A DNA stretch of 4,844 nucleotides from a virus (taxonomy: Duplodnaviria > Heunggongvirae > Uroviricota > Caudoviricetes), in IMG/VR virus record IMGVR_UViG_2602041863_000001, positions 1-4,844 of that record. One strand, given 5' to 3'. Below, in pieces: positions 1 to 4,844 of this stretch. The number at the start of each line of letters is the position of its first letter. Within the stretch, counting starts at the first letter, position 1. A model generated the notes under the pieces. It searched no databases. It had not been told where the DNA came from and worked only from the letters and a program-made list of their open reading frames with translations. Both the position numbers and the translations under genes were made by a program.

Positions 1-2454
1 AGTTCCATTCCCCACCACCGTGCCACTTGATGCACCATCCAGCCAGTCGAAATTCATACCGCCACTGTTTGGTCTCCTTAATGGAACGGTATGAGTATGT
101 GCGCCAGCACTATTTGCAGTACCAGATACATTGTGGGTATGTGCACCTGTGTTATTCGTTGATTTAGTACCGTAATCAAACGAAGATGTGGTTTTCGTAC
201 CCAAATCCGTATTGGATGCGCTGGCGCTGTGGGTGTGCGATTTAATGCCATCCTGTTCCAGAGACAATACGTCCCGACCACTGGCGGGTTTGCCCTTGAT
301 TGTCCAGCCACGCATATCCGGGATCACGCCTGACGGATAAGCGGCTGCAAGTTTCGGGTATGCAGATTTGTCAAAAGTCTGTCCCTGCATCAGGGCGTAA
401 CCAGACGGCACAGTATCTGATGGCCACGGCAGCGGAACACCTGGCGGAAACGCTTCAATATTTGCCGAGCCGTCAAATTTTACGCCGTTAATTGTCCTTG
501 CCGTTTTCAGCTTTGTTGCTGTAGCAGCATTGCCGGATAGTTCGCCTGAAAGACCACCGCTGAATGTCTGTTTCGCCGCCCATGTCTGAGCTTCGTCGAT
601 AATTGGCACACGTCTTGTCGTAATCGTGCGGCTTCCCGGATTTCCTGAAATGCGAACCATAAAAAAGCGGTAATTCGCTTTACTTACAGTGCTGCGCCAT
701 ACATGCATTGAGCGCCCCGTACCAGAATCATCACTCGGACCAACTGCGATGTTTATCAGGTTGCCATCAATGACGCCCCAGTCCATACCGTCGGGAATAT
801 TGGTCATGTTATCAAGCCGAACGGTTATCAGACTGCCCGGCACAAAATCGTAGGTCTGCCAGTCCAGGCTGGTGAGTTTTGCCACTGCGCCACCGATACC
901 CAGATTCAGGGGAAGTGAATAAGATGTGTAAACTTCCCGCCATTCGCTCCACGAGCTGCCGGTATAAACGCGCTCAAACGTGCGACCTTTAAGGGTTGCA
1001 CCTGTTCCGGCGGTTGTATAACGTTGCCATACGTTAACGCCATCAAAGCGCCTCAGCACTTCCAGAATACCGAGTACAGTCACGCCGTTTCCGTCCAGTA
1101 TTGGACCATTGGTCGCTTTACCTGTAACGCTGTAAATACCTGGTGAGGTTACATCATTCAAATCACCGTCGTAATAACGGCTTTCTGACTGGTAGCCCAC
1201 TCTTGACCACGGCTCCCATTGTGGGTTCTCTGCATCCCACGAGGCCGAAAGACAGCGAACATAAACATTTCCACGGCGGGTCGTGTAACGCTGCGTTCGC
1301 GAGTAACCACCACCTTCAAGAACTTCAAGGAGTCCCTGACCATAACTTCCTTCTTCCGGATAGTTGCGGTCAAATGAAGCGATTGAGCCACTACTGTTTC
1401 GCCATAAACCAAGATGCTCTGCGCCTCCGAGCGTGTTCAGGTCAATGGTTGTGCTCAGGGGGCGTGTTGCAGACTGAACCTGACGCCAGTAACTCCACGG
1501 ACCGTCTGAACCATTCCATGTGCCAGAAAGGTTGCGCATATAAACATTGCCTGTTCTGGTGGTGTAACGCTGCATTCCTGCAAAATTACCGCCATTGAAT
1601 ACCTCCAGTACACCGACTGCACCGTCTTCAGGGAAATTTTTAGCAGCCGTCGCGTTAGTGGATGTAGCTTTAGACCAGACGCCAAGATAAGCCTTAACGG
1701 GACCAAATGTATTCAAGTCAGCATCAAGCGGCATTTCGCCATTGTTTTTCATAAACGTCAGGCTGGTAACGCCAACATTGTCCAGAAAAGCGCCCTTATC
1801 TGGAATATCGTCACCGTTCTGGTCTTTCTGCATACGTTTTTCAGCATTGTCATAGGCTGCTTTTACTGCCTTTGGCGTTGCCGCCAGCTCTTCACTGGTG
1901 CTGTTTGTTGCGCTACTTAACTGAGTAAAACCTTTTTCTGTCAGCGTGGCGTCAGGATGGCGGCGGGATTGCTCATGCTCTGCGATTTTGTCATCGACGT
2001 AATCCTGCGTCGCCATCACTGTGCTGGCATCAATACTCAGCTCAACGGACGCTACGTTGCTGACAGTAATAACCATGCGGCAGGTCTGCGCGCGCCCGGA
2101 GCCTTCAGCGAGTTCAGGCTTATAGCTTTCCGCCATGTTAGCGACCGCAATCAGTGTTCCGGCATCGTCATACAGACCCAGCTCACGCATCCAGAAGCCG
2201 CCCACTTCTGGCGGTACAACCAGTTCAGCCACGATATAGTTTTTATTCTTGTTATCCACGCTGACTTTATTCAGAGCGTGACGCCAGACCTCATGCACCA
2301 GTTTCGTCTGACCGGCATCCGGCACCGGCAATTTGCCATTACCGTCACCCACGGCCATTGCAGACAGAGTTACTTTTTTCCCGCCGGGGACAGTGGCGGC
2401 TGCCAGCTTCGCGGCTCCGGCAGTAGTGATAGCGGTTTTAAATTTCGTGCTCAT
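1..2454 (-). CDS. phage side tail fiber protein (lambda Stf / P2 gpH type); 5' end complete, 3' end runs off the window start (818 codons in window)
   Basis: ATG at 2454-2452 on the minus strand, preceded by GTGAGAAACA and the TAA of the upstream frame. I hand-translated every codon down to position 1 and found no stop. This ORF is absent from the supplied track, apparently because it has no stop inside the window. N-terminus [63 protein letters not shown]...[18 protein letters not shown] is the conserved virion-proximal domain shared by lambda Stf, P2 gpH and Mu S. Conserved linker motif [27 protein letters not shown] at about 457-537. Tail-collar-like segment [33 protein letters not shown] at about 304-402. 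His-x-His motifs (HTH at 229-237; AHTHNV and AHTHTV within about 91-144). Confidence 0.9.
931..1608 (-). repeat. three tandem protein-level repeat units (about 90 aa spacing) inside the tail fiber shaft
   Basis: Hand translation shows three related units: [44 protein letters not shown] (about 1477-1608), [44 protein letters not shown] (about 1198-1329) and [45 protein letters not shown] (about 931-1065). Short nucleotide identities only (e.g. cagcgttacac, aatgtttat), so this is an old duplication rather than a recent one. Confidence 0.55.
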
Positions 2455-2464
2455 TGTTTCTCAC

Positions 2465-2827
2465 TTATCCGGGATAAACAGTAATAACATCACCATCACA
2501 GACCACACCGCCTGTATACAGATAGCCGGGAATGTCCTGGATAATGTTCAGGCCGATAAGGTGGCGACTTGCGGGTTTGGCATCGGCAATCAGCCGTTCC
2601 ATTTCCAGATACATTTCCTCGGTCACACCACTGTCCAGCGTGCCAACATCAACCTTGAATGTTCCGGGTTCGCCGTCGAACTCCCACCACTCAGACACGC
2701 GAATGAGGTATCCCAGCGGCTCAATGGCCCGGCGCAGTGCGCTGATGGTCCCTTTGTGTCGGTGTAACCGCGCTTCGCCTTCTGCGTCGCGGTGGTTTTT
2801 CGTGTTGCAGGCTTCCGCGTTGTCTTT
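2465..2827 (-). pseudogene. open frame without ATG or RBS immediately upstream of the tail fiber; possible 3' remnant of a baseplate gene (P2 gpI position). The track's 77-aa ORF 2465-2698 is its GTG-initiated tail
   Basis: The frame is open for 120 codons from the TAA at 2828-2830 to the TAA at 2465-2467, which lies 10 nt before the fiber ATG. Translation: KDNAEACNTKNHRDAEGEARLHRHKGTISALRRAIEPLGYLIRVSEWWEFDGEPGTFKVDVGTLDSGVTEEMYLEMERLIADAKPASRHLIGLNIIQDIPGYLYTGGVVCDGDVITVYPG. The only start in the track is GTG at 2698 with no Shine-Dalgarno upstream. The assignment rests on position (in P2 the baseplate gene I directly precedes H); I cannot verify homology from memory. Confidence 0.35.
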
Positions 2828-3564
2828 TTACTTTTGCTGCTTTCGTCCTGCGCCTGCGGTGTGCTGGCGTCTTCTGGTTCGGCTGCGGAATCGGCTTTTT
2901 TCAGGGCGCGGGAAAGGGTTGCAATCTCGCGTTTCACACCTGCGTTCGGGTTCAGGTGCATCGCTTCGCGCAGCAGCTTCAGTGATGAGGCCATGCTGTC
3001 CGCATCGCTCAGGCCACGGCGGGCAAAGGCGCACGCCTTGCATAATTTGGCGCGCACTTCGTCCGGCATATCCTGGTTGGCGACAATTTCCCAAAGTGTG
3101 TCCAGTGGTTCGATAAAGGCGGACAAATCCGCGTCGGCATCCGTCCCGGCCTGCGTCAGTACCGGGTTGCAGATTTCTTCGGTCAGTACCGTGGCAGCAG
3201 TACGGCCAAAGTTATCCGGCATGATGAGGTTGTGACGGACCACATACGCACCAATACGCAATGCCAGCGGAAGATCGCCGCAGTCAATCGCCCACACCAT
3301 CAGCGTGGCAATCACCTCATCTTGCTGCCCGCCGTCAGCCTCCAGCGTTCCTTCAATCCAGCCGGAAAAGTCCGGTAACAACTCTTTTTTGATGGCGGCT
3401 TTGGCGCTTCTGGCCTGTACGCCCTTAAGTCGGGCCTGTGCCAGACGCAGACGATACAGCACCTCTTCATGCGCGGTACGTGCGGCGTGATCCACGCCTT
3501 CATTCGCCCGGCCTGCGCGCTGCGCCATCACGTTCTGCCAGTGTTGCTGTGCAGGGGTAATCAT
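2623..3564 (-). CDS. phage terminase endonuclease / small subunit, P2 gpM family (313 codons; the last roughly 50-65 codons look like a read-through extension)
   Basis: ATG at 3564-3562 with GGAGAG 5 nt upstream. The protein MITPAQQHWQNV...KKELLP...LMVW..D.GD...AL.I..Y...............TEE...DMPDEVRAKL...AGVKREI..L...LK followed by a basic K/R/T-rich tail matches my recollection of P2 gpM (MTSPAQRH...KRELLP...DMPDEVRAKLHK...AGVKKEIERLEREL...) at roughly 35-40% identity. The ORF is longer than P2 gpM (about 247 aa as I recall), and the C-terminal GPSAHCAGPLSRWDTSFACLSGGSSTANPEHSRLMLARWTVV has an odd composition. Confidence 0.8.
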   Translation of the reverse strand: MITPAQQHWQNVMAQRAGRANEGVDHAARTAHEEVLYRLRLAQARLKGVQARSAKAAIKKELLPDFSGWIEGTLEADGGQQDEVIATLMVWAIDCGDLPLALRIGAYVVRHNLIMPDNFGRTAATVLTEEICNPVLTQAGTDADADLSAFIEPLDTLWEIVANQDMPDEVRAKLCKACAFARRGLSDADSMASSLKLLREAMHLNPNAGVKREIATLSRALKKADSAAEPEDASTPQAQDESSKSKKTTRKPATRKTTATQKAKRGYTDTKGPSAHCAGPLSRWDTSFACLSGGSSTANPEHSRLMLARWTVV

Positions 3565-3569
3565 TCTTT

Positions 3570-3575
3570 CTCTCC
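3570..3575 (-). promoter_or_regulatory. Shine-Dalgarno sequence (GGAGAG) for the gpM-like gene
   Basis: Minus-strand sequence reads GGAGAG-AAAGA-ATG, giving 5-nt spacing to the start codon at 3564. Confidence 0.5.
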
Positions 3576-3581
3576 GTTACA

Positions 3582-3600
3582 GGCGGGCATGATGCCCGCC
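3582..3600. repeat. perfect 19-bp palindrome GGCGGGCAT-G-ATGCCCGCC (GC-rich hairpin) in the capsid-fragment/terminase intergenic gap
   Basis: Read directly: 3582-3590 ggcgggcat, 3591 g, 3592-3600 atgcccgcc (exact reverse complement). It lies 10 nt after the TAA of the capsid-like frame (3610-3612) and 18 nt before the gpM-like ATG. No U-tract follows on either strand, so it is not a canonical intrinsic terminator. Confidence 0.6.
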
Positions 3601-3609
3601 GTGAGTTGA

Positions 3610-4068
3610 TTAGCTGTCGGCGAACTTCAGGCCTGTGACCATCGCGCACTTGCCATAGTCTTCAACGACATAAGCGTCATTGATGGACTGGTAGGTGGCG
3701 ATGCGGTTGTATTCCGGCTCGTCTTTCATCAGGCGACGCATTGAGCCTCTCTGCCAGTAAATTGACAGGTTGTTGAATGAGGTGATCAGCATCGTTGCAT
3801 CCGGGAAGAACGGCGCAAGGAATACATCCAGCCCACCAATGGTGCGCGATGACAGGATGAGCTGTCCGGCGAGTAATTCCGCATTGGGATTCTGGCCGCT
3901 GATGCTGTTCAGCACGGGCAGACGCAGCGAGTTAAACAGGTTGCGCCCCATAATCACCACGAGGTCGTCTGCTTCCTTGTGCCATTCATCCAGCAGGGAT
4001 GAGCGCGCGTCCTGTATCCGGTTTGCGTACAATTTCAAATCCCTGCGGTGCAATGATGCTGCCGTCAA
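3610..4068 (-). pseudogene. C-terminal fragment (about 150 codons) of a P2-family major capsid protein (gpN-like); N-terminal roughly 200 codons absent
   Basis: Translation ...DEWHKEADDLVVIMGRNLFNSLRLPVLNSISGQNPNAELLAGQLILSSRTIGGLDVFLAPFFPDATMLITSFNNLSIYWQRGSMRRLMKDEPEYNRIATYQSINDAYVVEDYGKCAMVTGLKFADS aligns with the C-terminal third of P2 gpN as I recall it (...PWYQEDPDLVVIVGRQLL...YFPADAMLITKLENLSIYY...RR...NIDYVVEDYAAGCLVEKIKVGDFS). The frame is closed by a TAA at 4087-4089 just upstream; the only start in the track is TTG at 4068; the preceding gene overlaps it out of frame. Confidence 0.6.
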
Positions 4069-4844
4069 CGTACAGGCTGCCGCCCCTTAACAGGTGCTGC
4101 ATCTGCTGTTCACCGATATGCAGGCCGAGAGATTCGGCAGATTCCCGCCATTCTTTAGCGAGTAATTCGTGGTTATCAGGCAAAGGCCGCTGCTGTTTGC
4201 GGCTCTGTGTCCAGCTCTGCATTTCATCACTGCTGTTTTTTGCCTGTTTGTCACGCAGCGAACGCATCAGCGCCCGGCGTTCGTGCCGTTTCAGTGAGCG
4301 CATCCAGTCATCCACATCAACGCCGTCAGGAAGCTGCGGCCACAGTGCTGGCCGTTCTTCCGGCTGTTCTGTCCCGTTGTTGTCCGTTTCCTGTACACGG
4401 GGACAGTTATTGCCACGGGTCCAAGGGGCGGCAGGGCCGCCCTGAAGGTCAAAACCATTTTCGTGGGCGTTGTCTTCCGGTTCTGGTTTACGTCTTACCA
4501 GCTTCCAGTTATCCGGATGCGTGCACACACGGGAGGATTCCCCGATGAGTGGTGACCAGATCCCGTAAATCTGTACGCTCTGTTCGCCGTAATCGTTCAG
4601 CTCATCTGCGAGGTCGTAGGCGGTGCGAATCAGGTAGTCCTTGCGTGGAACAAGCACGCCACCCTGTTTTTCAATGTAGGTGGCAAAACACCCGGCATCG
4701 GCGGCAGCGAGTACCGCATCCATTGCATCATCTTTCAGCCGTTGCGGGCCTTCCGGATTGCGTGCCATCTGGCTGGCAAGGCGGCGCAGTTCACGCCACA
4801 CCTGACGGGAGGGGATGCCAAAGAACTGGAACTGACGGACCCGG
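3986..4844 (-). CDS. hypothetical protein, 5'-partial (open to the window end); charged, Pro/Glu/Arg/Gln-rich, function unknown
   Basis: The frame is open from the window edge to the TAA at 3986-3988 (286 codons: RVRQFQFFGIPSRQVWRELRRLASQMARNPEGPQRLKDDAMDAVLAAADAGCFATYIEKQGGVLVPRKDYLIRTAYDLADELNDYGEQ...DDWMRSLKRHERRALMRSLRDKQAKNSSDEMQSWTQSRKQQRPLPDNHELLAKEWRESAESLGLHIGEQQMQHLL...). The track start at 4801 is a GTG; the real start is upstream of the window. The overlapping plus-strand ORFs are Cys/Ser/Arg-rich antisense artefacts, which supports minus-strand coding. The last about 30 codons overlap the capsid-like frame and are probably out-of-frame read-through. Confidence 0.45.
   Translation of the reverse strand, partial: RVRQFQFFGIPSRQVWRELRRLASQMARNPEGPQRLKDDAMDAVLAAADAGCFATYIEKQGGVLVPRKDYLIRTAYDLADELNDYGEQSVQIYGIWSPLIGESSRVCTHPDNWKLVRRKPEPEDNAHENGFDLQGGPAAPWTRGNNCPRVQETDNNGTEQPEERPALWPQLPDGVDVDDWMRSLKRHERRALMRSLRDKQAKNSSDEMQSWTQSRKQQRPLPDNHELLAKEWRESAESLGLHIGEQQMQHLLRGGSLYVDGSIIAPQGFEIVRKPDTGRALIPAG

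Follow-up and report, generated by a model that had tools for sequence, protein, structure and literature searches.

The window analysed here is a stretch of 4,844 bp that forms the whole of scaffold KI544480.1 in assembly GCA_000497015.1 (record L022). It holds pieces of a P2-family prophage of Escherichia coli, and our subject is how these pieces came to lie side by side and whether any of them is still put to use. An earlier sequence-only reading had described head and packaging genes joined directly to a tail fibre gene. It had suggested a prophage decayed by deletion, with domestication of the surviving genes or a satellite-like element as further options. We compared the window with L001, a closed O6:H16 E. 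coli genome that carries a less-deleted copy, with L002, another sister strain, and with L003, a near-intact sibling prophage at the flk-pdxB site of strain FDAARGOS_1077, which served as the reference for the late genes. Two isolate assemblies, L008 (GCA_000806245.1) and L021 (GCA_029359405.1), complete the set that is named repeatedly below.

All meaningful coding in the list of open reading frames (ORFs) of the window lies on the minus strand. The features of the window are as follows.

4844-4017, minus strand: internal part of the replication endonuclease gpA, approximately residues 541-816 of 940 (translation compared with the gpA of L001).
4403-4440, minus strand: sequence resembling the P2 ori nick site, a tentative assignment from a weak blastn match of the P2 ori region.
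Between 4016 and 4017 (microhomology span 4014-4016), no strand: deletion joint 2, with a 3-nt GTA microhomology (alignment to L001).
3610-4016, minus strand: 3' remnant of the capsid gene gpN, residues 217-350 of 350 (the last 134 codons; the N-terminal 216 residues are gone); PF05125.
2767-3564, minus strand: gpM, the small terminase subunit, with all 266 sense codons but its native stop destroyed; PF05944.
2623-2766, minus strand: run-on of the gpM frame, 47 extra codons and a stop in out-of-frame gene I sequence, which makes a 313-aa ORF at 2623-3564.
Between 2766 and 2767 (microhomology span 2765-2767), no strand: deletion joint 1, with a 2-nt TA microhomology (alignment to L003 and a breakpoint extension test).
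2465-2766, minus strand: 3' remnant of the gene for tail protein I, residues 76-175 of 175 (the last 100 codons), without its native start; PF09684.
1-2454, minus strand: tail fibre gene H, start codon at 2454, with 817 of its 885 codons in the window; it runs off the left end.

The spacers are 45 nt between the gpN remnant and gpM and 10 nt between the gene I remnant and the fibre. The scaffold ends inside the fibre gene (position 1) and inside gpA (position 4844), presumably because the assembly broke on prophage repeats, and its own assembly offers no extension on either side.

The identity of these pieces is well supported. In Pfam, the capsid remnant matches PF05125 (E 2e-42) over profile positions 201-324 of 327, gpM matches PF05944 (E 1.6e-36), the gene I remnant matches PF09684 over positions 71-139 of 139, and the fibre contains PF12571, PF03406, PF07484 and PF03335. 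The matches to PF05125, PF05944, PF09684 and PF12571 all lie above the curated cut-offs. Residues 217-350 of gpN and 1-266 of gpM are each 100% identical at the protein level to the intact copy in L003; the same is true of fibre residues 1-817 compared with the 885-aa fibre of L003, which the annotation of L001 calls a tail-collar fibre protein. The gene I remnant is 99% identical to residues 76-175 of the L003 gpI. A capsid fragment, a gpM-like gene and a fibre gene, all on the minus strand, are hence borne out where the sequence-only reading had placed them. It was also right that the gpM region is richer in GC than the distal fibre (58.9% for gpM, 51-52% for the fibre). The intervening block of genes is indeed missing, but head genes and fibre are not joined directly: the gene I remnant sits between them. 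The 120-codon frame without an ATG that had been noticed at this place exists, and consists of the 302-nt 3' end of gene I plus approximately 60 nt of out-of-frame gpM sequence. An Rfam scan of the window matched no family.

Joint 1 can be placed exactly. Positions 1-2766 of the window correspond to L003 14278-17043 and positions 2767-4016 to L003 22238-23487, both without a mismatch. Thus 5,194 bp are lost relative to L003 (17044-22237), and with them L, X, the holin, endolysin and spanin genes, R, S, V, W, J and the 5' part of I. The parental sequences at the crossover share TA only. The breakpoint falls within the gpM stop codon, where the parental TAA reads TAC in the window. Since the stop is lost, the gpM frame continues for 47 codons to position 2623, which gives the out-of-frame overlap at 2623-2827.

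Joint 2 lies on the other side of the head genes. Here window 4014-4844 aligns to L001 25081-25911, and approximately 6,064 bp are lost relative to L001 (approximately 19017-25080). The lost DNA comprises the rest of the truncated N gene, the terminase large subunit gene P, the portal gene Q, the portal-proximal region, two small ORFs, parM with its partner gene, and the 3' 124 codons of gpA. The gpA frame crosses the joint and reads 8 further codons to a stop at 3986-3988, while the capsid frame extends spuriously upstream as far as 4068; together they form the overlap at 3986-4068. Both overlaps had been taken for scars, and both do bracket real deletion joints. The right-hand one marks a second large deletion and no head-gene boundary: the ORF to the right of 3986, which the sequence-only reading had not recognised, is gpA, so this joint fuses an early gene to the capsid remnant.

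The full length of the truncated gpA can be read in L008 and in the contig L010. It has 824 aa (816 native residues and the 8 added ones), matches PF05840, and includes everything that is homologous to P2 A (P2 residues 42-740); the 124 deleted residues lie beyond. The ori-like site within it is a weak match to P2, 76% over 38 nt with an E value of 0.004 (blastn of the P2 ori region). Around the nick, whose position in P2 is taken from the annotation of the record, P2 reads GCCGCGCCTCGGAGTCCTGTCAATAACTG and the window reads GCCGCCCCTTGGACCCGTGGCAATAACTG. The nick-like core …CCTTGGACCCGTGGCAATAACTG… falls within the retained part of gpA.

A repeat search at joints 1 and 2 showed no insertion sequence (IS) ends and no long or meaningful direct repeats, and no RNA genes were found there. 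With homology of only 2-3 nt at the joints, the deletions would therefore be illegitimate, that is, RecA-independent. Two deletions produced the juxtaposition. One of them took out 5.2 kb between the gpM stop codon and the middle of gene I, and with it the genes for head completion, lysis, tail completion and the baseplate. The other, of approximately 6.1 kb, begins in the middle of the capsid gene N and reaches to a point 124 codons short of the end of gpA; it removed P, Q, the presumed cos region and the partition genes. The out-of-frame overlaps are upstream frames that run across each joint to the next chance stop.

Are the joints real? The assembly on its own might raise doubts. The window is an entire short scaffold of a draft assembly, and a genome of the O6:H16 type can harbour two P88-like prophages whose late genes are identical. 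Hence a chimeric scaffold could have falsely joined pieces of one or two complete prophages, and the sequence-only reading had itself named a misassembly as the finding that would undo it. The joints, however, recur. Joint 1 is found whole in two of 5,426 complete E. coli genomes (2014EL-1346-6 and B2C; 120-nt joint-spanning query), both of them closed chromosomes; the 313-aa fusion ORF, which is unique to this joint, turns up in 47 indexed blocks of the public collection. None of the 5,426 complete genomes has joint 2. It occurs in three isolate assemblies (L008, L021 and the window's own scaffold L022) and in about ten metagenome contigs (L010-L015, L020, L023-L025). These carriers span several projects and assemblers (SPAdes-style NODE contigs, MEGAHIT-style k127 and k141 contigs, isolates at NCBI), and several of the contigs are longer than the window and extend into the expected flanks. 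In L008 the sequence continues past joint 2 over the entire early region as far as the integrase, 100% identical to L001, with integrase, repressor and early genes intact. Because the joints recur in independent assemblies, misassembly is excluded as an explanation for practical purposes (we give it almost no credence), and the intervening genes are absent from this locus.

Judged by its gene order and by sequence identity, the parent is a P88-like prophage (Xuanwuvirus, Peduoviridae) beside tRNA-Leu in O6:H16-type E. coli. In L001, L002, L016 and L008 the element is bounded by tRNA-Leu and a phage integrase gene; in closed genomes the tRNA side is the glyW-cysT-leuZ cluster. There, hok, ogr, D, the sheath-to-U tail block (FI to U), an acetyltransferase gene, G and H make up one side of the element, and the early genes make up the other. 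L001 and L003, the complete relatives, have their genes in the order of phage P88 (NC_026014), namely A, parM, (cos), Q, P, O, N, M, L ... I, H, G; the sheath-to-U block lies on the opposite strand. At the protein level, gpM is 98%, the gpN fragment 98% and the gpA fragment 97% identical to P88 (residues 540-814 of P88 gpA), and the portal-proximal region shares 94% of its DNA sequence. The element differs from P88 in lacking 5.2 kb and approximately 6.1 kb (or more) of essential late genes, in its repressor and integrase region and attachment site, and in its fibre, which is another mosaic of 885 aa with an N-terminus nearer to P2 and a different distal part.

Compared with P2 (NC_001895) itself, gpM, gpN, gpI, gpH and gpA are homologous at the level of the family, and the order O-N-M-L...V-W-J-I-H-G is shared. 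The proteins are nevertheless distant: gpM (36%), gpN (40%) and gpA all fall within 33-40% protein identity, gpA has 761 aa in P2 and 940 aa in the element, and the tail sheath operon of P2 has the opposite orientation. Assigning the element to the P2 family was thus right at family level, and the parent is more precisely a P88-type phage. P88 has been described as a P2-like coliphage that differs from P2 in its lysin, replicase and terminase and has a P2-related, hypervariable fibre (PMC5285337). Our literature search found this description of P88 and nothing specific to the present remnant.

The fibre is the exception among the genes of the element. Over the first 204 aa it shares 85% identity with P2 H and only 67% with P88 H. 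A mosaic origin, which had been suspected from base composition, is therefore supported by the contrast between gpM, gpN and gpA (97-98% identical to P88) and a P2-like fibre N-terminus. Phage records match the fibre only from approximately position 488-503 of the window upward (P2-type fibres, 86-95% DNA identity), and the distal C-terminal part (window 1-502) has no close phage match.

Two apparent irregularities in the relatives were considered and rejected. The sheath-to-U tail block is not inverted by rearrangement, as P88 natively has the same arrangement, and gpD is not truncated, as an independent gene call gives a gpD of 369 aa compared with 366 aa for the P88 homologue. Among the records inspected, none held an intact parent at the attachment site of the element; the L003 sibling at flk-pdxB offers the best intact copy of the late region.

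The same prophage at leuZ has been broken in other ways in closely related strains. At least eight different deletion joints and one IS1 insertion occur in this prophage in near-identical strains. They include the following (coordinates are those of each record).

L001, approximately 19325: deletion joining truncated N to truncated P, which removes O.
L005, approximately 6890: additional deletion joining truncated parM to truncated Q.
L013 and L015, between 3497 and 3498: additional deletion joining truncated H to truncated T (fibre and tape measure); the fibre is truncated.
L002, approximately 18272 and approximately 19850: joints of truncated J to truncated O and of truncated P to A; gpM is absent.
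L016, approximately 24596 and approximately 27143, IS1 at 18111-18808: joint of truncated V to truncated N, the same P-to-A joint as in L002, and the IS1 insertion; gpM is absent.

The sibling prophage at flk-pdxB adds four further joints in strain F5656C1 (L026 6400-31000), where the fibre is truncated as well. This sibling (L003 5200-40000; L026) has a different repressor, Cox and integrase region and matches the window at 100% identity in its late genes; FDAARGOS_1077 holds a near-intact copy, and the copy in F5656C1 has suffered several deletions. Both prophages seem to be present in some strains, E143 among them, which suggests gene conversion or recent recombination between co-resident prophages. 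Three of the deletions span the lysis cassette, namely joint 1, the V-to-N joint of L016 and the J-to-O joint of L002. This hints at selection against lysis genes, with too few independent events for a test.

Despite all these breaks, the retained DNA has hardly changed. Window 1-4016 shows 0 mismatches to L001 and 0 mismatches to the intact late genes of L003. When we looked for differences among the carriers of the joints that could be sorted into synonymous and nonsynonymous changes, window 1-3834 contained none in any carrier. Elsewhere, L010, L011 and L025 differ by 30-44 clustered and mostly synonymous changes confined to the truncated gpA (window 4076-4835), with the rest identical. These changes look like an allele replacement or a chimeric assembly, rather than divergence in place. 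Substitution rates in E. coli are of the order of 1e-7 to 1e-6 per site per year. At such rates 4 kb would remain unchanged for centuries, and an open frame of 266 or 885 codons is simply the neutral expectation. Thus, because there is zero divergence from the intact copy, the intact frames carry no information on selection. That gpM and the fibre are still open reflects how recent the deletions are: there has been no time for point mutations to build up.

This bears directly on domestication, in which the host would keep gpM, the fibre (with G) or both for a benefit of its own, such as the supply of fibres or interference with the packaging of incoming P88- or P2-like phages. In its favour, both frames are open, most variants still have the fibre together with its assembly gene and the tail sheath-tube block, and the deletions have left the retained genes co-directional downstream of the early operon. 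Yet the openness of the frames is uninformative for the reason just given, gpM has no stop codon of its own and carries 47 junk residues, and neither gene is kept consistently: L002 and L016 have lost gpM, and L013, L015 and L026 carry a shortened fibre gene. The whole architecture is confined to a tiny clade (joint 1 in two and joint 2 in none of the 5,426 complete genomes). Expression is also doubtful. The intergenic region between P and O and everything upstream of gene I is deleted, and in P2 these are the places of the Ogr-dependent late promoters; gpM has probably lost its late promoter in this way. A consensus scan found no sigma-70-like promoter on either strand of the 4.8-kb window, compared with 3.6 +/- 1.9 in shuffled sequences, although such a scan cannot exclude expression. 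The absence of promoters from the window is in keeping with wall-to-wall late-gene coding sequence. A scan for promoters and terminators in the window returned nothing relevant, and its products matched no defence family. Hence domestication of TerS (the small terminase subunit, gpM) or of the fibre is unsupported, and we regard it as very unlikely.

A satellite would be a reduced mobile element that uses its own TerS to redirect the packaging of a helper phage and its fibre to set the host range. Some of the phage-inducible chromosomal islands (PICIs) carry a TerS of their own. The present element does resemble P4-like and PICI satellites in being a chromosomal element with an integrase and in having a TerS gene, as some PICIs do. 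Beyond that it retains a repressor, the early genes and most of gpA with the ori-like site. It differs from such satellites in what else it has and lacks. Among the 50 annotated features of the full L001 locus there are no primase, AlpA, Sid, Psu or delta-like genes, and all phage genes are of P88 type; genes for capsid-size control or helper manipulation are likewise missing from the annotation. Gone, too, are the portal, the terminase large subunit and the portal-proximal region. In P2 the last of these is where cos lies, and it is also where a linear P88-type genome record starts, so that the element would lack a cos or pac region. What is retained shares 97-100% identity and its gene order with an ordinary P88-type phage and does not form a distinct satellite lineage: the content of the element is a subset of one ordinary phage genome. 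Moreover, approximately 10 kb of tail genes are still carried, and different strains show different random deletions. A satellite with its own TerS and fibre is thus unsupported and barely credible.

The position of cos deserves a closer look. In P2, cos adjoins the portal gene, and the DNA beyond the portal is conserved in the P88 group. The linear P88-type genome record starts at a point that matches approximately L001 22474, within the interval deleted at joint 2. With up to 3 mismatches allowed, neither L001 nor the window contains the P2 cos 19-mer GGCGAGGCGGGGAAAGCAC, whose sequence agrees with the P2 record. The P2 cos region as a blastn query returned nothing in L001, L002, L003 and L008, and in the window only matches at chance level. 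P88-type phages evidently use a cos that differs from that of P2.

We conclude that the window is a fragment of an ordinary, recently broken-down defective P88-like prophage in the E. coli chromosome, with a probability of roughly 0.93. The proposal of a P2-family prophage decayed by deletion is thus borne out and made more specific: a P88-like prophage next to tRNA-Leu that has suffered two deletions, illegitimate ones to judge by their microhomology. As it stands, the remnant should be unable to form heads or baseplates or to lyse its host, and presumably it could not be packaged. Most likely it is inert cargo on its way to loss. Nothing indicates that the surviving genes are kept for a purpose.

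Four observations pull the other way. The loss of cos is deduced from synteny and from the start of the linear P88-type record, and the P88-type cos sequence itself was not found. The truncated gpA still contains all of the P2 A homology as well as the ori-like sequence, so that some capacity for replication may survive. A joint that falls on the stop codon of gpM and keeps every sense codon could look "designed". Finally, the truncated A and N genes, gpM, the truncated I gene, H and G now lie on one strand downstream of the early operon, and read-through from the early promoter on derepression is conceivable. As to the third, a junk extension of 47 aa on gpM is what a random breakpoint would yield. 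The fourth can be taken further. The deletions may have created a new read-through unit (truncated A, truncated N, gpM with its 47 extra aa, truncated I, H, G) that on derepression yields an extended small terminase and free fibres. These products could block the packaging of superinfecting phages of the P88 or P2 type, or enter their virions and alter the host range. If this were true, the remnant would have an accidental, selectable phage-interaction phenotype; we consider it highly improbable.

Some genes around the remnant lie outside this argument. A serine acetyltransferase-like cargo gene lies between U and G (L001 13671-14216; L016 17894-19216) and is interrupted by IS1 in L016; at the same position P88 carries an invertible fibre segment and a DNA invertase. 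Just past the prophage integrase there is a second site-specific integrase, together with small hypothetical genes and a DUF2787 gene (L002 29476-33299; L016 36768-40591). In L002 and L016 this stretch may be a separate small island that shares the locus.

The defective P88-like prophage takes its place among the cryptic prophages of E. coli. As in the K-12 remnants, truncated genes abut at joints, genes for morphogenesis and lysis are lost, and an integrase and cargo are kept. In contrast to these classical remnants, the element in the window is much younger: it shows no decay by point mutation, and sister strains preserve alternative deletion states. RefSeq already marks pieces of it as pseudogenes in closed relatives; in the PGAP annotation of L001, for instance, the gene I piece is "phage tail protein I, missing N-terminus" and gpM is a pseudogene.

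Taken alone, the remnant is a textbook defective prophage of little significance. It does carry a caution: an intact frame in a remnant that has not diverged from the intact copy is no evidence of domestication. Its value lies in the very young decay series to which it belongs, with at least 12 different joints in two sibling P88-like prophages and retained DNA that is at least 99.8% identical across strains. Such a series could inform the rate, the size spectrum and the use of microhomology of the deletions that inactivate prophages, and could show whether lysis or virion genes are removed preferentially.

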